Shown here: positions 3,479 through 53,952 of the stretch, one piece after another
Position numbering within the stretch: the stretch's first letter is position 1
Layout of the letters: each line of letters opens with the position of its first letter
NCBI GenBank assembly: GCA_002373935.1
Contig: DFKW01000006.1
Coordinates: 3,149-67,148, forward strand
Length of the DNA stretch: 64,000 nt
Direction: 5' to 3'
Source of the DNA: Alphaproteobacteria bacterium UBA3635
GTDB lineage: Bacteria > Pseudomonadota > Alphaproteobacteria > Rs-D84
Translations under genes and position numbers: made by a program
The notes under the pieces: generated by a model
What the model saw: the letters and a program-made list of their open reading frames with translations, nothing else
Database searches by the model: none
Told to the model about the DNA's origin: nothing

Positions 3479-3525
3479 CCGGGGTGCGCAATTTAATGTA
3501 ATCTGAATACAAGACAAGGAAGAAA

Positions 3526-4020
3526 GTGATGAAAAAATTATTGGCATTTTTATTTAGTGCGGGCATAACATCGAATGCGTTGGCAAATCCGGCATGCGCG
3601 GTTTGCACGGTGGCAATTGGTGCGACATTAACAATTTCACGGCGTTTGGGCGTGTGCGACAATGCGGTTGCAATTTGGCTGGGTGCGTTTTTGGTGATAT
3701 TGGGTTATTGGGCAATTAAATGGTTTGATAAACGAAATTGGCACTTTTTCGGTCGCGATGTGGTTTTGATGTTGTTATCGTTTTCTATGATTGGCGGATT
3801 ATACATAAATCAATTGCATTACAGTCCGTGCTATTGGGTCTTGGACGCGTTTTTATTCTGGGCGATTATTGGTGGCGTGGTTTATGTTGTATCACAGAAA
3901 TTCTACGAGTTTATGAAACGGCGTAATAACAATCATGCGCACTTTCCTTTTGAAAAGGTTGTATTGGCGTTGGTGATGTTATTTATTGCCAGTTTCTTGG
4001 TATCAAAATTTGCAATGTAA
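3526..4020 (+). CDS. Polytopic membrane protein, unknown family
   Basis: 164 aa with a signal-like N-terminus and several hydrophobic segments. No family was recognised. Confidence 0.6.
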   Translation: MMKKLLAFLFSAGITSNALANPACAVCTVAIGATLTISRRLGVCDNAVAIWLGAFLVILGYWAIKWFDKRNWHFFGRDVVLMLLSFSMIGGLYINQLHYSPCYWVLDAFLFWAIIGGVVYVVSQKFYEFMKRRNNNHAHFPFEKVVLALVMLFIASFLVSKFAM

Positions 4021-16038: not shown

Positions 16039-16054
16039 TTTGTTTAGTTTGTTT

Positions 16055-16080
16055 AAAACCGCCCAATCGGGCGGTTTTTT
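16055..16080 (+). terminator. Intrinsic terminator (CCGCCCAATCGGGCGG type)
   Basis: AAAA-CCGCCC AATC GGGCGG-TTTTTT. Confidence 0.85.
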
Positions 16081-19648: not shown

Positions 19649-20533
19649 ATGATGAAGGGAATTTTACTGGCCGGAGGGAGTGGTTCCAGATTATATCCAT
19701 TGACAAAAACAATATCCAAACAATTATTGCCGGTGTATGACAAACCGATGATTTATTATCCTTTGTCAACATTGATGCATTTTGAAATTCGGGATATTTT
19801 GATTATATCAACACCAAACGATACACCTAATATCGAAAAATTATTGGGTAATGGGGAACAGTTGGGTATGAAAATATCATATAAAATCCAACCACAGCCC
19901 CGTGGCATTGCCCAGGCGTTTACCATTGGCGAACAATTTATCGGTGATAACAATGTGTGTCTGATATTGGGCGACAATATTTTCCATATGGATACCGAGT
20001 TTGCGGATTTTCAATCTGCGGTCAAAAAGAACCAAAACAATCGCGCAACAATTTTCGCATATCAAGTATCAGACCCAGAACGTTTCGGCGTGGTCGAATT
20101 TGATAAAAACAACCGTGCCATATCAATCGAAGAAAAACCGGCAAAACCAAAATCTAACTTTGCGTCGGTGGGTCTGTATTTTTATCCGTCGGATGTTGTG
20201 CAATATGCGCGCGATTTGAAACCGTCGGCACGCGGGGAATATGAAATCACGGATTTGAATAACATCTATCTGCGCCAGGGACGCATGTCGGTCGTGCCAA
20301 TGCATCGCGGAAATGTTTGGCTGGATGCGGGAACACCAAATTCGTTGATGGATTCGGGAAACTTTGTCCAAATGATAGAGGCACGCCAAGGTATCAAAAT
20401 TGCGTGTATCGAAGAAATCGCGTTTGCGCGTGGATTTATTGACGCCGCCCAAATGGCGCGGTTGATTGATAAAGCGCCGCGCGGTCAATATCGAACATAT
20501 TTGGAACGCGTATTGAACGAAAAAACAAGATAA
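19649..20533 (+). CDS. rfbA: Glucose-1-phosphate thymidylyltransferase
   Basis: GILLAGGSGSRLYPLT motif, 294 aa. Confidence 0.9.
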   Translation: MMKGILLAGGSGSRLYPLTKTISKQLLPVYDKPMIYYPLSTLMHFEIRDILIISTPNDTPNIEKLLGNGEQLGMKISYKIQPQPRGIAQAFTIGEQFIGDNNVCLILGDNIFHMDTEFADFQSAVKKNQNNRATIFAYQVSDPERFGVVEFDKNNRAISIEEKPAKPKSNFASVGLYFYPSDVVQYARDLKPSARGEYEITDLNNIYLRQGRMSVVPMHRGNVWLDAGTPNSLMDSGNFVQMIEARQGIKIACIEEIAFARGFIDAAQMARLIDKAPRGQYRTYLERVLNEKTR

Positions 20534-20658
20534 AATTACCGCCGTTTTGGCGGTTTTTATTTTAACCAAAGGAGATTATAAAAAATTTGACAAACGATAA
20601 ATTTCTGCAATAATTTTATTAAAACAAGGCCAATATTTTACCACCAAAGGGGGCAAAT

Positions 20659-26524: not shown

Positions 26525-27760
26525 ATGATTGAAAAACCCGAACCTTTTGTTAAACCAGATATGATTTTCAGTGTGTCTGATGCGTCGGCATTATTGAAAA
26601 ATGTGGTTGAAACCGCGTTCCCAGAAATTCGCGTGCGCGGCGAACTGTCGGGTATTACACGCGCAACATCGGGACATATTTATATGTCTATCAAAGATTC
26701 CGGCGCGGTGATAAATGCTATCATTTGGCGCAGTACGCCGGTGCCGTTCAAATTGGAAGAAGGGACAGAGGTTATAATTACCGGTAAATTTACAACCTAT
26801 CCGGCGCGCAGTAATTATCAATTGATTGTGAACAGTATTGAAATGGCGGGTGTCGGCGCAATATTAAAAATGTTAGAAATGCGCAAACAAAAATTGGCCG
26901 CCGAGGGGTTGTTTGACGCATCGCGCAAAAAACCGTTGCCTCGCCTGCCCCAACGAATTGGTGTCGTCACCAGTCCGACCGGTGCCGCGTTCCAAGATAT
27001 ACAAAACCGCTTGCGCGAACGATTTCCGGTGCATGTATTGTTATACCCGGCAACCGTCCAAGGGGAAACCGCCGCGCATGAGGTTGCCGCCGGCATTGAA
27101 TACTTTAACAAAATGAATAATGTCGATGTGATTATTGTTGCGCGTGGTGGTGGCGCATTGGAAGATTTATTGCCTTTCTCTGAAGAAATTGTTGTGCGTG
27201 CCGCCGCCGCAAGTCATATACCATTGATATCGGGTGTGGGACACGAGCCGGATTGGATGCTGATTGATTTTGCCGCCGATGTGCGCGCGCCAACGCCGAC
27301 GGGTGCCGCCGAAATGGTTGTGCCGACAAAGTTATCCCTGATTCAAGAATTAGACAATCTGTCGCATCGGTTGGACACGGTTTTCGCAACGCGTTTGGTC
27401 GGCATGCGTCAAAGGGTGGAAAATATTTCTGTGAAAAGTCCAAAACAAATTGTTATGGAGTGGACACAACGATTGGATGATGTCGGGCGCACAATTGGTT
27501 TGATTGTTTCAAACAAAATGGCCGTGGCGCGTCAAAAAATTGACACAGTTGCAAATATGCCGAATATTTTAACTAACAAAATGCACATGCTGAATCAAAG
27601 TATGCAACATGTTGGAAATATGCTGAACAGTTTGAGTTATAAAAATGTATTGCGGCGCGGATTTGCCATTGTGCGTGATGAAAACAATAAAATCATCAGT
27701 AATTCTGGTGGTGGCCGCCCGGCAACAATTGAATTTAACGATGGGGTAATAAAATTATGA
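26525..27760 (+). CDS. xseA: Exodeoxyribonuclease VII large subunit
   Basis: 411 aa with N-terminal OB-fold region FSVSDASALLKNVVETAFPEIRVRGELSG. Confidence 0.9.
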   Translation: MIEKPEPFVKPDMIFSVSDASALLKNVVETAFPEIRVRGELSGITRATSGHIYMSIKDSGAVINAIIWRSTPVPFKLEEGTEVIITGKFTTYPARSNYQLIVNSIEMAGVGAILKMLEMRKQKLAAEGLFDASRKKPLPRLPQRIGVVTSPTGAAFQDIQNRLRERFPVHVLLYPATVQGETAAHEVAAGIEYFNKMNNVDVIIVARGGGALEDLLPFSEEIVVRAAAASHIPLISGVGHEPDWMLIDFAADVRAPTPTGAAEMVVPTKLSLIQELDNLSHRLDTVFATRLVGMRQRVENISVKSPKQIVMEWTQRLDDVGRTIGLIVSNKMAVARQKIDTVANMPNILTNKMHMLNQSMQHVGNMLNSLSYKNVLRRGFAIVRDENNKIISNSGGGRPATIEFNDGVIKL

Positions 27761-28149
27761 TTTACACTGGATATTGGGCAAAAATAAAAGAATACGAACA
27801 ACAAAATTTGACCCCAGTTGGTATTTCCGGATGGTCGCCGGATGGGTATGCTGGCAAAACATACAAAAAACTGGCACCGAAATACGCGTGGTGGAAAGAG
27901 TGGCACGATAACAATTTATCTGAACAGTGGTATATAAACAAATATTTTGAAACCGTATTAAATAAACTGAATCCTCGCACGGTTGCGCAAGATCTGCAAC
28001 AAATGGGACAAAATGTTGTTTTATTGTGCTTTGAAACGCCCGATAAATTTTGCCACAGACATTTGGTTGCAACGTGGTTAAACGCATCCAAATTTGCAGA
28101 TGTTCGTGAATATATTTTAAAATCAAATCAAATGCAAATGAATCTGTAA
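27757..28149 (+). CDS. DUF488-like protein
   Basis: 130 aa with VVLLCFE..DKFCHRHLVATWL motif. ATGA overlap with the xseA stop. Confidence 0.6.
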   Translation: MIYTGYWAKIKEYEQQNLTPVGISGWSPDGYAGKTYKKLAPKYAWWKEWHDNNLSEQWYINKYFETVLNKLNPRTVAQDLQQMGQNVVLLCFETPDKFCHRHLVATWLNASKFADVREYILKSNQMQMNL

Positions 28150-28150
28150 A

Positions 28151-28174
28151 AAAACGCCCAATTGGGCGTTTTTT
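28151..28174. terminator. Intrinsic terminator (CGCCCAATTGGGCG type)
   Basis: AAAAA-CGCCC AATT GGGCG-TTTTTT. Confidence 0.85.
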
Positions 28175-28175
28175 A

Positions 28176-28210
28176 CAGTTTTCAGAGTACAGAGTGCAGA
28201 GTTCAATTAT
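28176..28210 (+). repeat. Tandem heptamer array (CAGAGTN x5)
   Basis: CAGTTTT CAGAGTA CAGAGTG CAGAGTT CAATTAT. Confidence 0.85.
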
Positions 28211-28238
28211 TGTGTCGGTCGTGGACCGACAACGTTAT

Positions 28239-28325
28239 TTATGTGTTTTGACGGCGGTCAATGCCAACCCACGGTGCAGCAATGCACACAGCAAATCCGG
28301 CGGAATTGATTAAAACAATAGACAT
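28239..28325 (-). pseudogene. Internally deleted, frameshifted remnant of the 72-aa XRE gene
   Basis: Aligns to both ends of 38794..39012 but lacks ~130 bp internally. A 28-codon stub remains behind an intact AGGAGG RBS. Confidence 0.8.
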
Positions 28326-28373
28326 CATCGAACCTCCTGTTTTTATTTATCACCGCCAGGATGGCGGATTCAC

Positions 28374-28445
28374 AACTGCCCCGTCACCCTGACGGGTGCC
28401 ACCCCTTCTTTTTGTGCTGGCGCACAGAAAAGACGGGGAATGTCC
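28374..28445. repeat. 72-nt two-hairpin module (copy 1 of 4)
   Basis: aactgcccc - variable hairpin - cacccc - invariant imperfect hairpin CCCCTTCTTTTTGTGC tggc GCACAGAAAAGACGGGG - aatgtcc. Confidence 0.85.
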
Positions 28446-28537
28446 AGAGATAAAAATCATAGTGCAACAACTGCACTCTGCCTGCGCCCCATAGCCCAAC
28501 GGGCGCCGGGGTGAACTTTGCACTCTGAACTTTGAAT

Positions 28538-28690
28538 AAAAAATACCGCGGAAAAAGCGCGGTTGGAGGCCAGAAAACTACTACAGAGTGTAGTGCCGCT
28601 TATTCAATATATTCGCGACCCTCCAACCAACTGGGTGGAGTTTTCTCTGTACAAGGTTTTTCTGGACCCACATTGGCAACACACCAATGC
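28538..28690 (-). ncRNA. Candidate structured RNA of ~150 nt (copy 1), unknown class
   Basis: Promoter TTGCAA-17-TAAAAT (28725-28697) and terminator ACCGCG/CGCGGT plus U-run (28563-28538). Helices covary with copy 2. Confidence 0.6.
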
Positions 28691-28726
28691 AGATATATTT
28701 TAACCGACAAAGTATAAATTTGCAAA

Positions 28727-30379
28727 TTATTTTATCAATGTTTTTGCGGTGGCGATGGATTCAGGTGTTATGTCGGCGCCACTGATTATGCGGGCGATTT
28801 CGTTCACACGTTCGTCACCCGTGATTTCCACAACAGATGTCGTTGTTTTGTCGCCGTCTGTTGATTTTGATATTTTATAATGACGGTCGGCAAAGCCCGC
28901 AACCTGGGCCGAGTGGGTTATAACAATTGATTGTGCATTTTGCGACAATTTATTCAAACGTGCACCAACCGCGGATGCGGTTGCGCCACTGATACCCGTA
29001 TCAATTTCATCAAACACAAATGTGTGTGCGTCCGCCCCGCCCGCCAAAACCACGCGCAGCGCCAACATAAAACGCGCCAATTCACCACCAGATGCCGATT
29101 TGTTCAATGGTGCAAATGGCATGCCGGGATTTGTTTTAATCATAAATACAACATCGTCCACACCGTTGGCGGTTGGGTTTGCGTTTGTAATTTCAACCAT
29201 AAAATCCGCAGACCCCAATTTCAAATCCGGCAATTCTGACAAAATACGTGTTCTGATTGCCGCAGATGCATCCGCCCGCATTTTGGATAATTTGTGTGCG
29301 GCATCATTGAATTGTTTTTTTGCGCCCGTCAATTCGTGTTGTAATTTTTGCAATTCGGCATCGGAATTATCGATTGCATTTAATGCCATTTCCATATCGC
29401 GTAATTTATTCGGTAATTCGTCCGGCAAAACACGATGTTTGCGTGCCAAACTGCGAATTGCAAACAGACGTTCCTCGACATCATCAATTGTGCCAATGTC
29501 CGGTGCGTCCGGTTTAATAGATTCCGCCACATCTGCAATATTTTGTGCAACATTATACAATGTATCGATTTGTTCCGCATACGGGTTTTCGCCATCGCCG
29601 TGCAACCGTTCCAAAATATGCGCAACATCGCAAACAAGTGAATCCAACGAATTCCCGTTCGGATTCAACGCATTTTGTGCATCGTTCAAAATTGCGGTAT
29701 TTTTTTCCGCGTTCATCATATTTGCACGAATTGTCGCCAATTCGGCTTCTTCGCCGGGTTTGACATTTAACGCACGCAATTCGGCAACATTGTGTTCCAA
29801 AAATTCGTGTTCAGATGCCGCGCGACTAACCAATTCTTGCAATTCAGATAACCGGGTTTCGATTGTGTGCATTGTGTTGTATGATTCACGGACAGATTTT
29901 TGCACATCTGTGAACCCTGCAATATTTAATGCGGCAAATGCGTCCAATGTTGGACGATGTGTTGCCGGGTTTAACAATGTATGATTTGCAAACTGACCAT
30001 GGATTTCAACCAATGCATCGCCAACCATTTTCAACACACGCACCGACACGGGTGTATCGTTTATCCATGCGCGACTTTTCCCGTCCGACGACAAAGTGCG
30101 ACGCAACACAACGGTATCATCCACATCCAGTCCATTTTCCATCAATATATTTTTAACATTATCAGACACAGATGTAAATTCCGCCGTGGACGCGCCCACA
30201 TCGCACCCGGCACGCACCAGGCCGGCATCACTGCGCGCACCCAATGCCAAAGACAATGCATCCATTAAAATACTTTTGCCCGCACCCGTTTCACCGGTTA
30301 AAACATTTAATCCACCACCGAATTCCAAATTCAGTTTTTCAATTAAAACTATATTAGAAATATTTAATGATGTCAGCAT
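28727..30379 (-). CDS. recN: DNA repair protein RecN
   Basis: 550 aa with N-terminal LTGETGAGKSILMDAL and an SMC-like coiled coil. Confidence 0.95.
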   Translation of the reverse strand: MLTSLNISNIVLIEKLNLEFGGGLNVLTGETGAGKSILMDALSLALGARSDAGLVRAGCDVGASTAEFTSVSDNVKNILMENGLDVDDTVVLRRTLSSDGKSRAWINDTPVSVRVLKMVGDALVEIHGQFANHTLLNPATHRPTLDAFAALNIAGFTDVQKSVRESYNTMHTIETRLSELQELVSRAASEHEFLEHNVAELRALNVKPGEEAELATIRANMMNAEKNTAILNDAQNALNPNGNSLDSLVCDVAHILERLHGDGENPYAEQIDTLYNVAQNIADVAESIKPDAPDIGTIDDVEERLFAIRSLARKHRVLPDELPNKLRDMEMALNAIDNSDAELQKLQHELTGAKKQFNDAAHKLSKMRADASAAIRTRILSELPDLKLGSADFMVEITNANPTANGVDDVVFMIKTNPGMPFAPLNKSASGGELARFMLALRVVLAGGADAHTFVFDEIDTGISGATASAVGARLNKLSQNAQSIVITHSAQVAGFADRHYKISKSTDGDKTTTSVVEITGDERVNEIARIISGADITPESIATAKTLIK

Positions 30380-33567: not shown

Positions 33568-35481
33568 ATGCCAGCCACGCAAATTTTATTGATTGTTTTG
33601 GGTTTTGTATCAACATTATTATTGATTGCATTGATTGTGTCTTTTTCAATTTCACGCAAATCTCAACACGTTATGGAATCTTTGTTAACCATTTTAACAC
33701 ATCCGGAACGCGTTCAAATTCGCGACGCGGCGCGCGTGTTAAACACCGTTTTGGCCGACGAAATTGCAAAAATTCACGCGGGTTTTCAAACACTGCAAGA
33801 AACATTACAAACCCAAATTGCCACCGCCGAAGATTTGCAACAACGACTGAGCAGTCAAAACGACGCATTGGTGAATACCGCGGATGACGCAACGAAAAAG
33901 GTTGCCAATATGTCGCAACGATTGGAAAATACTGTCGATGGATTGCAAAACATTGTTGATTCCGAAAATTGGAATTCGGTTGCGGTGTCTGCGGATAATT
34001 TTTCGACAAATATCGGTGAAATGTTGGCAAAAATCGACACAACAACATCTGATGTGAATACCCGGATTGATAATATACAAAATCAAATTACAAACTGGAT
34101 TGATGCGGGCGAAAAATTAAACGGTGAATTAAACACAAATTTCGAAAACAACACCAATCAAATGAAATCTTTGACCGATAACACAAATACTATGCGTGAT
34201 ACATTGGCCGATTTGAATAAATCTGTGGCGGACGGGTTCGACAATATAAAAACATCTGCCGCCGGATACGAGGATGTGTTGCGCACAAACGACAAATTCA
34301 TGAACGACCATTTGGTTAAATTAGACGCATACAGCAAAAATGCAAAAAAACAACTGGTGGCACAGGCAAACACATTGACCAATACCGCCAATGTCGTCGC
34401 CAGCCAGGTGCAATTGGCGGAATCATCAATCGACAAACAAACGCGCAAATTGACCGATGCGGTTGATGCATTGATGACATCTGCAACAACGACCGAGGCA
34501 TCTGTGCGCGGTGTATCAAATGAACTGTCGGGACTGACCAATCATTTCAATGGCGAAATCAAAGATTTTGCAACATCTGTGGTGTCCGAGATAAAAACCG
34601 TATCGGGCGTTGCAAATGTCACATTGGAAAACACAAAAACCGCCGCAAATGCGTTTTCGGAATCGGTCAAAACAATGGCGACGGGCGTGCGCGAAACACT
34701 GATTGAGATGAACACGGCACACACCCAACTGTCGGGTCAATCGCAAAATTTAATTAAATTGTCGGCGGACACAACCGCACAATTGCAACCGCTGTCTGAA
34801 TTGATTGAAAAGTATTATGCCGCCCTGCCCGATTTGTCACAATTATCAATTCAAACGAACGATAACCTGAACAAAATTGTGGCAAATATGGAAAAGAACA
34901 TTGCGCTGATAAAACAGGCGGTCGCAGATTCAACAACATCTGTTTCCGAATCCACAACAAAACTGGAAGATTTGGCCGGCGGGGCGCGTCAACAAATGAT
35001 TGATTTGATGTCTGATTATGCGCGCGCCGTGAACACATTGCAAACATTAAACAAACAAATGATGGTCGCACGCGCATCGGCACCAATGGATGCAATTAAA
35101 TCGGCCCCGATTGCCGCCGCCGCGGCCAGTGGTTCGGATTTTTTGGCAAATGTGGACTTCGGTAAACTGTATGAATTATCAATGGATTTAACCCAGGCAA
35201 TCGGTGCAGACATCCCCGATGTCGTGTGGAAAAAATATCATGCGGGCGATAAAACAATATTTTCAAAATGGCTGTCAAAAATGATGAGTGCGGCTGAAAA
35301 AAAGCAGATTCGTGATTTGTTAAAGAACGATACTATTTTCCGGTCCCAGGCATCACAGTTCGTGCGCGGTTTTGATAAAATTTTGGACGGCGCGGCGCAA
35401 ACCGATACACCGGATGCGGTAAAGTCAAAATTGTTAAAAACAGATTTGGGAAATATTTACACCCACCTGAAAGGAAAATAA
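33568..35481 (+). CDS. Membrane-anchored long coiled-coil protein, unknown family
   Basis: Start trimmed to MPATQILLIVLGFV (TM), RBS GGGGAG. About 600 aa rich in Asn/Thr/Gln/Leu with heptad character. Confidence 0.65.
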   Translation: MPATQILLIVLGFVSTLLLIALIVSFSISRKSQHVMESLLTILTHPERVQIRDAARVLNTVLADEIAKIHAGFQTLQETLQTQIATAEDLQQRLSSQNDALVNTADDATKKVANMSQRLENTVDGLQNIVDSENWNSVAVSADNFSTNIGEMLAKIDTTTSDVNTRIDNIQNQITNWIDAGEKLNGELNTNFENNTNQMKSLTDNTNTMRDTLADLNKSVADGFDNIKTSAAGYEDVLRTNDKFMNDHLVKLDAYSKNAKKQLVAQANTLTNTANVVASQVQLAESSIDKQTRKLTDAVDALMTSATTTEASVRGVSNELSGLTNHFNGEIKDFATSVVSEIKTVSGVANVTLENTKTAANAFSESVKTMATGVRETLIEMNTAHTQLSGQSQNLIKLSADTTAQLQPLSELIEKYYAALPDLSQLSIQTNDNLNKIVANMEKNIALIKQAVADSTTSVSESTTKLEDLAGGARQQMIDLMSDYARAVNTLQTLNKQMMVARASAPMDAIKSAPIAAAAASGSDFLANVDFGKLYELSMDLTQAIGADIPDVVWKKYHAGDKTIFSKWLSKMMSAAEKKQIRDLLKNDTIFRSQASQFVRGFDKILDGAAQTDTPDAVKSKLLKTDLGNIYTHLKGK

Positions 35482-35508
35482 AAAAACCGCCCAATCGGGC
35501 GTTTTTTT

Positions 35509-38478: not shown

Positions 38479-38751
38479 ATGAACAAACAACAATTGATTG
38501 AAGCAATCGCAAACGAAGTCGAAGTTACAAAAGCAACTGCTGCTTCTTGCTTGGATGCATTTATCAACACTGTTACCAAAGTTTTGAAAAAGAAAGGCGA
38601 AGTTCGCTTGGTTGGTTTTGGTACATTTACATCTGCAAAACGCAAAGCAACAACTGGCCGCAACCCACAAACTGGTGCTGCGATTAAGATTCCTGCGTCT
38701 GTTCAACCAAAATTCAAACCTGGTAAAGCTTTGAAAGATGCTTTGAACTAA
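38479..38751 (+). CDS. hup: Nucleoid protein HU
   Basis: 90 aa: MNKQQLIEAIA...GFGTF...RKATTGRNPQTG. Confidence 0.95.
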   Translation: MNKQQLIEAIANEVEVTKATAASCLDAFINTVTKVLKKKGEVRLVGFGTFTSAKRKATTGRNPQTGAAIKIPASVQPKFKPGKALKDALN

Positions 38752-38793
38752 AGAGCAATCGAAATCAAAAAAAACGCCCAATCGGGCGTTTTT

Positions 38794-39012
38794 TTATTTA
38801 TGTGTTTTGACGGCGGTCAATGCCAATCCACGATGCAGCAACGCGCAGAGCAAATCCGGCGGAATTGGTAATCGCCCAATTTCATACAGGTACAAATCGT
38901 GCGACGATATTTTCAAAATTTCCGCCACGGTGGCTTTATTCATATGCAATGATTTACGCGCCCGGCGCAGTTGTTGTCCATAGGCACGCGCATCAATTAA
39001 AACAATAGACAT
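38794..39012 (-). CDS. Small XRE-family HTH protein (72 aa)
   Basis: LRRARKSLHMNKATVAEILKISSHDLYLYEIGR HTH. RBS GGAGGAG. Terminator at 38775-38788. Confidence 0.75.
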   Translation of the reverse strand: MSIVLIDARAYGQQLRRARKSLHMNKATVAEILKISSHDLYLYEIGRLPIPPDLLCALLHRGLALTAVKTHK

Positions 39013-39222
39013 TTCTCTCCTCCATTTTTATTTATCACCGCCAGGATGGCGGATTCACAACTGCCCCGTCACCCTGACGGGTGCCACCCCTTCTTTTTGT
39101 GCTGGCGCACAGAAAAGACGGGGAATGTCCAGAGATAAAAATCATAGTGCAACAACTGCACTCTGCCTGCGCCCCATAGCCCAACGGGCGACGGGGTGAA
39201 CTTTGCACTCTGAACTTTGAAT
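39013..39222 (-). promoter_or_regulatory. Multi-hairpin 5' leader of the XRE gene, containing heptamer blocks and the 72-nt module (39059-39130)
   Basis: Successive hairpins: CCCC..GCCC gtt GGGC..GGGG, AGTGCA/TGCACT, the module hairpins, and CCGCCA/TGGCGG. About 165 nt is identical to 28341-28505. Confidence 0.6.
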
Positions 39223-39375
39223 AAAAAATACCGCGGGAAAAGCGCGGTTGGAGGCAAGAAAAACTACCATAGAGTGTAGCGTCGCTTATTCGAATATTCA
39301 CGACCCTCCAACCAACTGGGTGGAGTTTTCTCTATGCAAGGGTTTTCTTGTCCCACATTGGCAACACACCAATGC
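39223..39375 (-). ncRNA. Candidate structured RNA of ~150 nt (copy 2), unknown class; possibly a cis-acting attenuator
   Basis: Lies between promoter 39410-39382 and terminator 39248-39223. Three helices are supported by compensatory or wobble changes against copy 1. Confidence 0.6.
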
Positions 39376-39381
39376 AGACAT

Positions 39382-39410
39382 ATTTTAACCGATAAAATAT
39401 GATTTTGCAA
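39382..39410 (-). promoter_or_regulatory. Sigma-70-type promoter of the candidate RNA
   Basis: TTGCAA (39410-39405), 17-nt spacer, TAAAAT (39387-39382). Confidence 0.65.
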
Positions 39411-39464
39411 ATTATTATTAATAATTCATTATATGAAAAAAACCGCCCGATTGGGCGGTTTTGG

Positions 39465-40448
39465 TTAAAACCATTTCCATGGTTGAAATACACTTAACAG
39501 ACTCATCGCGGTACGGCGGTCGGCGTATGTATGACCACAACGCGGACACACCAAGAACGGCGCGATTACGGCCTTGTACTTTTTGTATATCAACGACCAG
39601 ATGTATAATCCCGCCGCCCATGCCGCAATCACCAATCCCCACGCGACATAGTTAAAATAACTGTTCACGGTGCGGGTCAAAATTTGCACCACGCCCAGGT
39701 CGGATTTTTCCAAATCGTTATAGATTTTGACACCAACGGGCCAACTGGACGGACGCCATGGATACACGTGTTTGATTCCATAATCGGTCAATAATGTTGT
39801 CCCCAGCCCGCCGGATGCCTTGTCCAATTCTTTTTTGATTGCGGCATCGATGATTTTATCAACCTCTATCTGGGTCAGTTTTGTCAATTCGCTTTGCACT
39901 TTGTCCAATTGTTTGTTCACCATGGCGGCGGTATCGTCCACACGTGCGATACCCTTGTTTGCCTGGGCAATGCCAGAGTCGGCTTTGTCAACGACTTTGT
40001 CCACGGCATCGGTTTTAACACCAAACATATTCGCCAGACCCGTCAATTTTTTAACACTGCCCGTGGTTTGGGATGCCTTGGCCGTGGTATCTTTTGCTTT
40101 GGCCGTGGTGTCCGTCACTTTATCAACCGCACCCTGGGCCAATTTAACCTTGTCAATTGCCATTGCAACCGGTTTTTCCAGGTTGATTGCATCCTTGATC
40201 CCCGACAGCAGGCGCGCGTATTGTTCCTGGATATTTCTTTGCAGGTCAAAGAACATCGACACGACCATTGATTTTTTTATCGGACCCGCGTAATGATGTT
40301 TTACATATAATGGAAAACTGAATACAAATGCCAACCAAATAACCGATACAATCGCAAATGTGCGTTTTGCACCCTTTATCACAGACGGTTTTTTTGCAAC
40401 GGTTTTTGCACCGTGCATATCGATAACTTCAACTTCTTTTTTTGCCAT
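39465..40448 (-). CDS. Membrane protein with central coiled-coil/repeat region, unknown family
   Basis: 327 aa with TM segments near both ends, a Lys/Asp/Thr/Ala-rich centre and C-terminal CPRCGH. Confidence 0.65.
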   Translation of the reverse strand: MAKKEVEVIDMHGAKTVAKKPSVIKGAKRTFAIVSVIWLAFVFSFPLYVKHHYAGPIKKSMVVSMFFDLQRNIQEQYARLLSGIKDAINLEKPVAMAIDKVKLAQGAVDKVTDTTAKAKDTTAKASQTTGSVKKLTGLANMFGVKTDAVDKVVDKADSGIAQANKGIARVDDTAAMVNKQLDKVQSELTKLTQIEVDKIIDAAIKKELDKASGGLGTTLLTDYGIKHVYPWRPSSWPVGVKIYNDLEKSDLGVVQILTRTVNSYFNYVAWGLVIAAWAAGLYIWSLIYKKYKAVIAPFLVCPRCGHTYADRRTAMSLLSVFQPWKWF

Positions 40449-49478: not shown

Positions 49479-49525
49479 TATAATTGTTTCTTCTAAAAAA
49501 ATCCGCCCGTTTGGGCGGTTTTTTT

Positions 49526-49560
49526 CAGTGTTCAAAGTGCAGAGTTCAGAGTGCAGTTGA
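49526..49560 (+). repeat. Tandem heptamer array (x5)
   Basis: CAGTGTT CAAAGTG CAGAGTT CAGAGTG CAGTTGA, immediately after the rlpA terminator (49503-49525). Confidence 0.85.
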
Positions 49561-49580
49561 TGAATAATTATTATTTCGGA

Positions 49581-49686
49581 CATTTCCCGTCGCCAATTTT
49601 TACCGAAGCAACGCGAGGATTAAAAATTGAGCATCGCGCCGAATTCCGCCACATAAAAAACACCACGATTTCTCGTGGTGTTTTTT
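49581..49686 (+). ncRNA. Candidate short RNA (~105 nt) ending at a bidirectional terminator
   Basis: Possible promoter TTCAGA-18-TATTAT (49545-49574), internal hairpin CGCGA/TCGCG, and terminator CACCACGA/TCGTGGTG plus T-run (49661-49686). Confidence 0.3.
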
Positions 49687-49786
49687 GATTTTATCTGGCA
49701 AGGCCTTTTTCTGATTGGGAGTTGGTTTCGGGGCCACCAAATAAAATCAAAACTCTAAGTTCCTTTTCCCCAGTGGAGAGGAACTT

Positions 49787-51247
49787 TTACTCCACCACCG
49801 GACCGGCGGTAAAAGTCCCGGTGCCTGCATTGGTATAAAATCTATCGTTGACCAAATCATACATTCCCAACACACCGTCGCTGTTGCGTTTTACAGGAAT
49901 CATATTGCGAACCAAAATGTCATTTTCGTAAATGCTAAATTCGTATACTTGCACTTTATTATTGGTGCTCTCTATCGACGGTCGCCATCTCTGAAAGATA
50001 TAAAAAGGTCGATTATCTGTATCTGGAATCGTTGCATTATTAGTCAATTTCACATCACCGTTCACAGAAAATTCTGTTGCAGATAACGATAATTTGTTTT
50101 TTTCTAGCATATTAACATTCTCTGCATGAAGCCACGTTCCAGCTGGGTCGAATTTGATTTCGGCAGTACTATCGTCCAAAGAATTTATAACAAGTAAAGC
50201 ATCACTAGAAACGCCTGTTGTTCCACGTCCTGAACCAACAATATTTACATTACCCGCACCAGAGTCAACTTTCGCGACAATTTCTATACGTGTTTTTGAT
50301 GTTGGAGAATAATTCGTGTTTATGTAAGCGTTCCCATCAGAACGCAAATATTCCAACTCTGTATAACCCTCGGGCAGGCAATGCGCACTGCTGCAAATCT
50401 CGTACCAATGCGGAACGCCACTCGCATCTTCGACCAACAGGCATTTCTTGCCGGCGGGGCATTTTTCATTGTCGTCAGCAATGTCGTTTGGGCGGGTTTG
50501 TTTGCCCGATTGCAAAGTCGCGATACTCGCCGCCTGAGATATCGTGTTTGACACGACCGTATTCACCGTCGCAACCGCCGCCGCCAACCGTGAGTTCAAA
50601 TCACTAAACTGTGTTTCCACATATTTTGTCGTGGCAATTTTGATTTCTGCAATCGGTCCGGCAATAAACGAACCCGAACCGGCATTGGTATAGAACTGCC
50701 CACCAACCGTATCATACATCCCAATCGCAGAATCACTGTTCCGTTTCGCAGGGATAAAGTTTCCGATTACGCGCCCAGCAGAATCTTTTGCAACAAAATT
50801 ATAAACCTTCTCTTTTGACGGATAGTTGCCACCAACAACCGCGAACAAACCAAAACCAGTATTATTGTGATAGCTGCCTAATGAGTGTTCGTTTTCCAAA
50901 TTTTCGTTAACATATAGCTTTGATTTGCTACCACTAATTACTAATTTTGCATTATAAATTGTGTTTAATGTTACAGTTGTTCTGCCACGGCTCATATTCC
51001 ACCAATATAAGTCACTATCTATACCCATTTGTGCATCAGAACCCCAACCATTCATTTGATACGCGCCAAATAAGCCTGAATACGATAAACGTATTTCAAA
51101 TGATGAGCCGTCTGTACCAAAAATCCCTGTATCAATATATTGGGTTCCTGTACTTTCGATGTATTCCAACTCCGTATACCCCGCCGGCAGCGCCCACGAT
51201 GGAATTGTGAATAATAACCCCAACATCGCACATAAAAGTTTTTTCAT
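49787..51247 (-). CDS. Secreted protein with two lectin/tail-fibre-like repeat domains
   Basis: Start trimmed to MKKLLCAMLGLLFTIPSWA (signal peptide). Internal duplication: LPAGYTELEYIESTGTQYIDTG...FYTNAGSGSFIAGP versus LPEGYTELEYLRSDGNAYINT...FYTNAGTGTFTAGP. Confidence 0.75.
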   Translation of the reverse strand: MKKLLCAMLGLLFTIPSWALPAGYTELEYIESTGTQYIDTGIFGTDGSSFEIRLSYSGLFGAYQMNGWGSDAQMGIDSDLYWWNMSRGRTTVTLNTIYNAKLVISGSKSKLYVNENLENEHSLGSYHNNTGFGLFAVVGGNYPSKEKVYNFVAKDSAGRVIGNFIPAKRNSDSAIGMYDTVGGQFYTNAGSGSFIAGPIAEIKIATTKYVETQFSDLNSRLAAAVATVNTVVSNTISQAASIATLQSGKQTRPNDIADDNEKCPAGKKCLLVEDASGVPHWYEICSSAHCLPEGYTELEYLRSDGNAYINTNYSPTSKTRIEIVAKVDSGAGNVNIVGSGRGTTGVSSDALLVINSLDDSTAEIKFDPAGTWLHAENVNMLEKNKLSLSATEFSVNGDVKLTNNATIPDTDNRPFYIFQRWRPSIESTNNKVQVYEFSIYENDILVRNMIPVKRNSDGVLGMYDLVNDRFYTNAGTGTFTAGPVVE

Positions 51248-51650
51248 TTCTTTCTCCCCGTTCTTTTGGTTCTGCGTTTTTTTGTGAAAAATTTTCACAA
51301 AAAAAGCGCCATCAACAGGAAGATGCGCGGCAGGGGTGTTAGAAAAATCAGTACAACAATGACCCCATATGCATTACTGCATACGGCACCCACGCCAAAC
51401 CGTAAACGGGTCGATAGCGGGTTTTTTATACAGGGGTAAAATTCACATTTCTATATGGTGAAAAAAATTTTTCCTAAAAATTCCAACACCGAAATAAAAA
51501 TGTCGGTGCAAAATATGACGGCAACAAACACAGCCCCGCCGAATCGAATCGGGCGAGCATGGGAGAGTTACGATGCAAATCTTGCACCGGTTGTACTGGA
51601 CTTTTCTAAGGTCCTTGTCCGAAATCAACTCCCTGGTGATTTCTGATGTC

Positions 51651-51680
51651 ATTATAGAAAATGGAATTTATTTATTGCAA
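51651..51680 (-). promoter_or_regulatory. Near-consensus sigma-70 promoter reading toward the lectin-like gene
   Basis: TTGCAA (51680-51675), 18-nt spacer, TATAAT (51656-51651), about 400 nt upstream of the start codon. Confidence 0.6.
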
Positions 51681-51691
51681 GAATATTTTTG

Positions 51692-51862
51692 AACTGCCCC
51701 ACCGGCTACGCCGGTCCCCCCCCTTCTTTTTGTGCTGGCGCACAGAAAAGACGGGGAATATCCAGAGTCGGAGGTGCAATAAAATTTTTGAACTGCCCCG
51801 TCCCGCTTTCGCGGTCCACCCCTTCTTTTTGTGCTGGCGCACAGAAAAGACGGGGAATATCC
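51692..51862. repeat. Two tandem copies of the 72-nt two-hairpin module (51692-51763, 51791-51862; 99-nt period)
   Basis: Same consensus as 28374-28445 and 39059-39130. The first hairpin differs in each copy but stays paired. Confidence 0.9.
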
Positions 51863-51883
51863 GATAATAAATAATTATTTTCT

Positions 51884-51918
51884 ATAACTGAACTCTGCAC
51901 TCTGAAAACTGAAAACTA
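51884..51918 (-). repeat. Tandem heptamer array (x5)
   Basis: Read on the minus strand: TAGTTTT CAGTTTT CAGAGTG CAGAGTT CAGTTAT. It abuts the ligA terminator (51921-51935). Confidence 0.85.
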
Positions 51919-51936
51919 AAAATAATCCCGACGGGA

Positions 51937-53952
<2,016 letters not shown>

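Follow-up and report, generated by a model that had tools for sequence, protein, structure and literature searches.

Two copies of a leader RNA–HTH cassette in an alphaproteobacterial genome share a repeat block that was probably copied recently

A 64,000-nt stretch of the genome of Alphaproteobacteria bacterium UBA3635 (contig DFKW01000006.1; hereafter the window) carries, twice on its minus strand, a cassette in which a leader RNA precedes a gene for a small XRE-type helix-turn-helix (HTH) protein, once at the recN locus (copy 1) and once at the HU locus (copy 2). Between leader and gene, both copies contain the same non-coding block, with 165 nt in a row free of any difference amid diverged flanks, and the HTH gene of copy 1 is interrupted by a deletion. 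The account that we consider probable as a whole is that of a cassette with a switch-like leader whose HTH gene was killed in copy 1, and of a central block of repeat DNA that has recently been copied, with gene conversion as the likeliest route. A pseudogenised paralogue accompanied by recently copied repeat DNA is ordinary genome evolution, and the case illustrates that perfect non-coding conservation between diverged paralogues need not mean function and that comparison across a population can reveal young repetitive DNA. For this comparison, variants of the recN and HU loci were gathered through their identical DUF488 and HU proteins, and other contigs that encode the HTH protein or relatives of it were identified; contigs and loci from other assemblies are designated by numbers from L002 to L096. 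The host lineage is known from metagenome-assembled genomes (MAGs) only, obtained from rumen and gut and labelled Alphaproteobacteria bacterium or uncultured proteobacterium.

Two copies, one with a deleted HTH gene

The first-pass annotation of the window had placed copy 1 between a DUF488 gene and recN, and this is where it lies (DUF488 at 27757-28149 on the plus strand, RecN at 28727-30379 on the minus strand). Its description of copy 1 as retaining a promoter, a leader RNA and a terminator ahead of a truncated open reading frame (ORF) with an intact ribosome-binding site (RBS) is likewise borne out by the elements of the two cassettes, in which the leaders were scored with a covariance model (CM) called R1:

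28235..28308 (-): out-of-frame remnant of the 3' part of the HTH ORF, 93.2% identical to 38794-38867
28242..28328 (-): stub ORF, frameshifted and 27-28 codons long; its deletion junction 28308/28309, TTTTAATCAATTCC, is also found in L036
28334..28339 (-): intact AGGAGG RBS of the dead ORF
28341..28531 (-): inserted mosaic repeat block of copy 1, not in the orthologous loci L003, L010 and L034
28353-28367: sub-part of the block, CCGCC hairpin
28364-28458: sub-part of the block, GC-rich module with core hairpin at 28408-28432, matched by the module hidden Markov model (HMM)
28461-28477: sub-part of the block, terminator-like hairpin
28478-28511: sub-part of the block, 34-nt submodule
28511-28532: sub-part of the block, inner heptamer array
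28538..28563 (-): intrinsic terminator that ends the leader, with a hairpin (28545-28563) and a T-run
28539..28694 (-): leader RNA of copy 1 (~156 nt), intact, every helix kept (CM R1, 173.2 bits, E = 5e-44)
28697..28725 (-): sigma-70-type promoter TTGCAA-17-TAAAAT, from a consensus scan, conserved across all HTH-type loci
38794..39012 (-): intact gene of copy 2 for a 72-aa XRE-type HTH protein, identical on other contigs
39026..39216 (-): mosaic block of copy 2, same composite, not in the HU-locus orthologues L005-L009, L090, L092 and L094
39224..39379 (-): leader RNA of copy 2 (CM R1, 161.1 bits), with its promoter at 39382-39410

Alignment of the two copies segment by segment confirms that their divergence is mosaic. 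Copies 1 and 2 have 11 mismatches (91.1% identity) over the promoter and the 5' portion of the RNA (28731-28609), and the 3' part of the RNA (28607-28578) is 83% identical. From 28577 to 28341 identity rises to 98.7%, with only three mismatches (28571, 28552 and 28506), and all 165 nt of 28341-28505 equal 39026-39190, so that the base-for-base identity reported before is exact; the flanks of this tract are 83-93% identical. The RBS region that follows cannot be aligned between the copies (CAGGAGGTTCGATG in copy 1, TGGAGGAGAGAA in copy 2), and the first 17 nt of the ORF are again the same in both. The internal deletion, previously estimated at ~130 bp, measures 128 bp: the segment 38868-38995 of copy 2 is missing from copy 1 at the junction 28308/28309, flanked by AATT microhomology. 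It leaves a stub translated as MSIVLINSAGFAVCIAAPWVGIDRRQNT before the stop, of 27 codons or of 28 if counted from an in-frame upstream ATG, and beyond the junction the last 73 nt of the ORF keep the 93.2% identity listed above. A further ~60 nt (28175-28234) are present in copy 1 only.

The cassette at the recN locus, which also occurs in species whose HTH protein is only 61% identical, is ancient, and the deletion, common to L036 only, is young. The leader of copy 1 has the top CM score and is 97.4% identical to that of L038, which precedes an intact HTH gene; its differences from the copy-2 leader in helices P2 and P3 are compensatory. Since the HTH deletion is recent, this intact leader is not yet a sign of an RNA function of its own. 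We would reconstruct the history of the two copies as follows. The recN locus would be the ancestral position of the cassette; in the lineage of the window strain, a deletion between AATT repeats would have killed the HTH gene of copy 1, with the leader still intact, and copy 2 at the HU locus would supply the HTH protein. The block in both copies consists of dispersed mini-repeats behind the leader terminator and would have been copied by a conversion that the homologous leader and ORF flanks primed.

Two other contigs bear on the fate of such cassettes. On L074, an HTH-type leader (3504-3663) has non-pairing P3 arms that stem from different alleles and has repeat modules, but not an HTH gene, behind it, which probably makes this another decayed cassette. 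The recN-DUF488 locus of L042, with flanks of 95% identity to the window, lacks the leader-HTH cassette entirely, and the shared terminator stands directly after the recN stop codon. The cassette is therefore a presence/absence polymorphism, and its absence from L042 is probably a secondary loss.

The central block as inserted and copied DNA

Judging from the related strains, which carry the leader and an intact HTH gene without the block at both loci, the central block is a dispensable insertion and not a part of the cassette. At the recN locus of L003, L010 and L034 the leader and an intact HTH gene are present and the terminator runs straight into the RBS (...GCGGTATTTTTTATTCAAAAATGGAGG...ATG); at the HU locus, L005-L009, L090, L092 and L094 have the cassette without the block, and in more distant relatives the cassette itself is absent. 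Other recN loci hold other arrangements in the same place. L035 has the GC-rich module and a second module only; L038-L041 have heptamers, a hairpin, the module and a second module ahead of an intact HTH gene; and L036, with the same 128-bp HTH deletion as the window, has a different block in which ~120 nt are inserted within the module hairpin. Between the leader terminator and the RBS there is thus a hot spot, occupied by a mosaic that varies with the strain. Since GC-rich insertions of 120-210 nt also lie between terminator and RBS behind leaders of surface-protein genes (L070, L053, L061, L073 and L063; see below), the hot spot extends across the leader family in general. Comparison with other strains, which the first-pass annotation had proposed as a check, therefore finds the leader and the HTH gene common to the relatives and the block variable or absent. 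The idea of an RNA/DNA module kept by selection together with the cassette is not supported, given these block-free orthologues, the other mosaics of other strains and the presence of the same sub-elements at unrelated terminators.

The related reading in which the block is a functional RNA or DNA module, such as an additional regulatory domain within the leader, held identical by purifying selection, is one that we regard as highly improbable. It would agree with the lack of any substitution over 165 nt amid differing flanks and with the stable hairpins in the predicted fold. However, the block is missing from most orthologous cassettes with an intact HTH gene, its composition differs where it is present and the same modules occur at loci free of the cassette; besides, selection would not erase all synonymous-like variation here while the strongly constrained leader differs by 9%. 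It would be just as surprising if the identity came from a repeat mis-threaded during metagenome assembly. The window does derive from an uncultured organism, repeats of ~200 nt are able to mislead short-read assemblers, and the contig L004 ends exactly at a single-nucleotide polymorphism that distinguishes the copies. Yet copy 2 with its block is identical in three assemblies (L002, L096 and L004) and copy 1 is identical in L037; among these exact matches to the window, L002 and L037 belong to a single scaffold, and L096 and L004 stem from a second and a third assembly, respectively. At both of its junctions, each block is tied to flank variants specific to that copy, variants of the recN-locus block exist in five further assemblies and the HTH deletion junction recurs in a further assembly (L036). 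The identity is thus not an obvious assembly artefact.

The age of the copying can be estimated from the strains. Flank identity to the window strain is 98% in L036, 91-95% in L038 and 87-90% in L034 and L035. The two copies in the window have exactly the same composite, with two components (the 34-nt submodule and a 3' hairpin) that are missing from L035, L036 and L038, and the block region as a whole (28341-28551) has 1 mismatch in 211 nt, as compared with 7-17% divergence of the flanks. Set against a divergence of ~2% between the window strain and L036, this near-identity and the shared exact composite suggest that the block was copied as a unit, later than the split of these two strains.

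Such recent copying most likely took place by gene conversion between the paralogues. We favour this route because alleles of the leader helix P3 are shared across the two loci and because the L036 leader is divergent, with 90% identity to the copy-1 leader despite the 98% identity of its flanks. The P3 allele TGCATAGAG is found at the HU locus (window copy 2 and L094) and at the recN locus (L003), and the allele TAAATAAGCTAAA at the HU locus (L005-L009 and L090) and at the recN locus (L036). Both hallmarks of gene conversion are thereby present, namely a near-identical tract in diverged homologous flanks and an independent exchange of alleles, with the sharp ends of the tract as a caveat. Of the two forces that had been proposed to act on the module, selection or gene conversion, the latter is accordingly plausible, whereas selection is contradicted by the block-free orthologues with an intact HTH gene. 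Compared with the gene conversion of paralogues such as tufA/tufB or rRNA operons (here and below, known systems are described from general knowledge), the tract of near-identity in diverged flanks and the leader alleles common to both loci are alike, but the tract in the window coincides nearly exactly with a non-homologous insertion and is shorter and more sharply bounded than is typical.

Two observations weigh against this account of the block. First, the identical tract stops within ~5 nt of the block on the RBS side and within ~20 nt of it on the leader side, which is sharper than homologous conversion predicts and fits a discrete insertion. Selection could account for part of this sharpness, because a longer tract from copy 1 would bring the lethal deletion into copy 2. 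Second, the nearest relative at the HU locus has an identity of only ~89%, and the age of the block there rests on its identity to copy 1. The composite repeat might instead have entered each copy separately, behind a leader terminator that is identical in both, through a transposition-like process that targets terminators and with no homologous recombination between the copies. This scenario, which we hold to be unlikely, draws on the same close match between the tract and the limits of the block and on the position of arrays and modules directly behind intrinsic terminators, reading away from them. The succession of heptamers, an AT-rich linker or hairpin and a module beginning GGACATTCCCC also recurs at unrelated terminators (window 49529 and 51901; L030 and L074), and in L090 a GC-rich module flanked by terminator copies resembles a target duplication. 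Nevertheless, no transposase was found in the stretches examined, and the block ends have neither terminal inverted repeats nor a clear target-site duplication. Moreover, the mosaics differ at all other sites, yet the two paralogous sites have one exact composite, which argues for a transfer driven by homology.

The leader RNA and its proposed switch

RNAalifold, run on 20 unique leader sequences, recovers the helices P1, P2, P4 and P5, a small hairpin (P6) and the terminator, although MAFFT/RNAalifold failed to align the hypervariable arms of P3. A pattern scan of metagenomes yielded 45 leader loci, mostly from rumen samples, and alignment with CM R1 then comprised 58 members. In this alignment, which is fitted to the model and hence favours the structure, 97.6% of cells are paired and 26 of the 39 pairs show double compensatory changes, with a covariation score of 0.532 as compared with 0.173 after shuffling (0 of 500 shuffles) and 0.05-0.07 in slid controls. 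P2 has more than 10 distinct complementary allele pairs, and P6 covaries as well (CUAC/GUAG, CAAU/AUUG and CUAU/AUAG). In P3, the 5' arm comes after P2 and the 3' arm forms the P6 loop; P3 arms form a mean longest stem of 7.21 with their own partner and of 4.26 with non-cognate ones (0 of 2000 permutations, with the arms anchored to P2). Since the P6 loop is the 3' arm of P3, and since only 0-1 nt separate this arm from the 3' arm of P6, the two helices could not coexist, and the geometry of the pseudoknot would make P3 and P6 mutually exclusive. The terminator has a 6-bp GC-rich stem followed by a T-run, with covariation between GC and AU at the innermost stem pair beside the loop, and several distant members have weaker T-runs.

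This leader would act as a cis-acting two-state switch upstream of the HTH gene. By default (OFF), P1, P2, P3, P4, P5 and the terminator would form, resulting in termination and leaving a CCUCC motif free to mask the GGAGG of the RBS. In the proposed ON state, induced by some effector, the invariant GGUUGGAGG in the 3' arm of P4 would pair with the invariant CCUCCAACC, to which it is fully complementary and which overlaps the 5' arm of the terminator, enclosing P5 and P6, and expression of the HTH gene would depend on the resulting read-through. The minimum free energy fold of all seven leaders tested corresponds to P1-P5 plus the terminator, and when the pairing of GGUUGGAGG with CCUCCAACC is forced, P5 and P6 form within it. 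Speaking against such a switch, forcing the ON fold costs 5-15 kcal/mol in stability relative to the OFF fold, and the antiterminator (2:3) pairing is invariant, so that covariation lends it no support, and was imposed by the search pattern in the metagenome set. In block-free alleles, ~18-25 nt separate the leader T-run from the start codon, with the RBS ~10 nt after the run, and most of the 58 members have a similar spacing.

The leader resembles the terminator/antiterminator leaders of riboswitch platforms and of the trp, pyr and T-box systems in that it immediately precedes an ORF on the sense strand, ends in an intrinsic terminator, includes a segment with two predicted partners, one within the sensor fold and the other in the 5' arm of the terminator, and has two helices that each covary and would exclude each other. 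It differs from them in its lack of an Rfam match, in the hypervariability of P3 and in the genes concerned, which are metabolic in the known systems and encode small XRE-type regulators and secreted or surface proteins here. With Rfam 15 (4227 families), the whole window at gathering score gave one tRNA only, with no match to the leader or the block, and a scan of 38700-39500 at E<=10 returned only terminator-like chance matches. Searches of the literature for the conserved motifs of the leader and for rumen RNA motifs found nothing relevant.

The RNA might, alternatively, be the product of an independent gene for a trans-acting small RNA (sRNA), with the HTH gene merely downstream and copy 1 kept for its sRNA. 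The strong terminator that ends the default fold should let a ~155-nt RNA accumulate, the copy-1 leader shows no decay though its ORF is dead, and the invariant CCUCC resembles an anti-Shine-Dalgarno sequence. In the 58 members of the family, however, the RNA always has an ORF of its own strand immediately behind it, with a start codon that is usually ~20-40 nt away and no space for another promoter, and the deletion is so young (strains ~2% apart) that the absence of decay says little; we find an independent sRNA distinctly improbable and retain the cis-acting switch. The alphaproteobacterial cuckoo / alpha-r14 / CcsR sRNAs are likewise multi-copy and have a conserved CCUCC motif. They act in trans and expose CCUCC in hairpin loops, whereas the cis leader has a single CCUCC beside its terminator, and none of them is among the E<=10 Rfam matches of 38700-39500. 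Several other interpretations were discarded. Short ORFs within the leader are not conserved by inspection, which removes a leader peptide. A diversity-generating retroelement, a retron, a type I/III toxin-antitoxin system or an IS200/605 omega-RNA finds no reverse transcriptase, toxin or transposase nearby; the substitutions are not adenine-specific and the RNA is always a sense-strand leader. As for a phage origin, the leader is not in viral contigs and the regulator matches to PHROG are only weak.

The protein encoded by copy 2 matches HTH_31 (23.1 bits, cutoff 27) and HTH_19 (20.0 bits, cutoff 30.2) below threshold in both cases; six of ten relatives have precomputed PF13560 matches, and comparison with solved structures and NCBIfam gave no informative match. 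A leader stands directly upstream of every HTH homologue traced. It is followed by an HTH-type XRE gene in L045, L049, L051, L052, L055, L058, L076, L077, L080 and L084, and by a gene for a signal-peptide protein at ~20 other loci; of ten such secreted proteins tested, four have Listeria-Bacteroides repeat domains and the others are without Pfam match. A leader of the surface-protein type (L074:1900-2053) is located on the same contig as the HTH-type leader described above, and both types therefore occur in one lineage. At the pheT locus, a second HTH gene of 86 aa without a leader (L015:1956-2216) lies just upstream of a leader-HTH cassette. With its covariation and its lack of an Rfam match, the leader family is a candidate new class of regulatory RNA and a possible handle on the control of surface proteins in these gut bacteria. 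Going further, we raise tentatively, as a possibility that we do not yet hold to be the probable one, that the leader represents a two-state riboregulator of a class not yet described, which would be a riboswitch or else be acted on by a dedicated antiterminator (possibly the co-regulated XRE protein), that it controls a regulon of secreted and surface proteins together with its own small regulator in uncultured rumen and gut Alphaproteobacteria, and that the repeats are a new kind of element able to install itself specifically behind intrinsic terminators, that of the leader included.

Terminator-associated repeats in the window and beyond

The components of the block belong to a wider set of repeats, with four GC-rich modules and five heptamer arrays in the 64 kb of the window, all of them intergenic. 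In addition to those of the two blocks, the following features were recognised:

28148..28174 (no single strand): bidirectional intrinsic terminator common to DUF488 (+) and the cassette (-), a member of terminator repeat family D3, 96% identical to the copy-2 terminator
28179..28206 (+): outer heptamer array TTTTCAG AGTACAG AGTGCAG AGTTCAA, after the DUF488 terminator, in copy 1 only
28213..28231 (+): hairpin TGTCGGTCGTGGACCGACA, a piece of a terminator-associated repeat, in copy 1 only
51681..51915 (+): third locus, with tandem GC-rich modules (51681-51780 and 51781-51877) and an inverted heptamer array (51884-51915) beside the ligA terminator

The GC-rich module of ~95 nt (28364-28458) has four copies in the window with the same 25-nt core hairpin, as compared with 0 expected. 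The tandem modules of 51681-51877 show 65-79% overall identity, and their first hairpin differs by compensatory changes. With a strict pattern, a genome scan located the module core on four contigs from two rumen MAGs, as part of intergenic mosaics away from the cassette; three contigs of MAG RUG13827 have module copies, and the module HMM found further ones. Heptamer pairs are similarly in excess in the window (10 found vs 0.15 expected). Each of the 22 distinct heptamer arrays, (AGTKCAR)n, starts behind an intrinsic terminator, at 0-17 nt from its T-run or hairpin, and reads away from that terminator; after the array come an AT-rich linker or hairpin and, further on, modules or a promoter. 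The inner array adjoins the leader's own terminator, and the outer array and its hairpin adjoin the terminator of DUF488. These outer elements, which had been noted as a feature that copy 1 has and copy 2 lacks, are indeed confined to copy 1, but they are a repeat attached to the DUF488 terminator and not part of the cassette; hairpins of other sequence occupy the spot of 28213-28231 in L034, L035 and L038. The number of heptamer units varies among close strains, with three strict units in the window and L043 and two in L036, and two in L017 as compared with four in L018.

By their architecture, these repeats would fall among the intergenic mosaic repeat families of the REP/BIME, NIME, RIME or BOX kind. 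Like REP/BIME in E. coli, NIME/dRS3 and Correia in Neisseria, RIME in Rhizobium and BOX in pneumococcus, they are short, non-coding, hairpin-forming, multi-copy and extragenic, lie near terminators and form mosaics that vary among strains. They differ in sequence, with no resemblance recognised by eye and no match in the Rfam scans, in having (AGTKCAR)n arrays of variable length behind terminators, with no transposase identified, and in their host, an uncultured rumen and gut alphaproteobacterial lineage. Nothing comparable to these terminator-associated mosaic repeats was found in the literature searched. A miniature inverted-repeat transposable element was considered and rejected, as no inverted-repeat relation exists between the block ends GTTCAGAG... 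and ...GGTGATAAAT and the sole candidate for a duplication is an ambiguous AAA. In L090, the GC-rich module 3' of the HTH gene lies between two copies of one terminator (AAAAAAACGCCCGATTGGGCGTTTT ... AAAAAAACGCCCGATTGGGCGTTTTTT), the hairpin of which may have been duplicated by the insertion, perhaps a hint at how the modules spread. With their close association with terminators, the heptamer arrays and GC-rich modules offer a tractable case for how small repeats reach these sites.

The heptamer arrays of the window are located at 28179-28206, 28511-28532, 39196-39216, 49529-49556 and 51884-51915, and arrays are also present in L011, L017, L018, L030-L032, L036, L074 and L080. Their first units are frequently degenerate (TTTTCAG), and pairs of inverted arrays bracket entire intergenic islands. 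A nearly identical terminator hairpin, CCGCCC-AATC/GTTT-GGGCGG, recurs at 16046-16080, 20526-20560, 35474-35508, 38761-38795, 39430-39464 and 49490-49524 and makes up a repeat family of its own. The island between inverted heptamer arrays at 49529-51947 also includes two of the GC-rich modules and a gene (49787-51298, minus strand) for a 503-aa signal-peptide protein with no Pfam match. Upstream of this gene, on the same strand, lies a distinct leader-like region of ~200 nt (~51440-51690) that has a terminator-like hairpin and a promoter close to consensus (TTGCAA-17-TATAAT) and is conserved in the rumen MAG locus L030.

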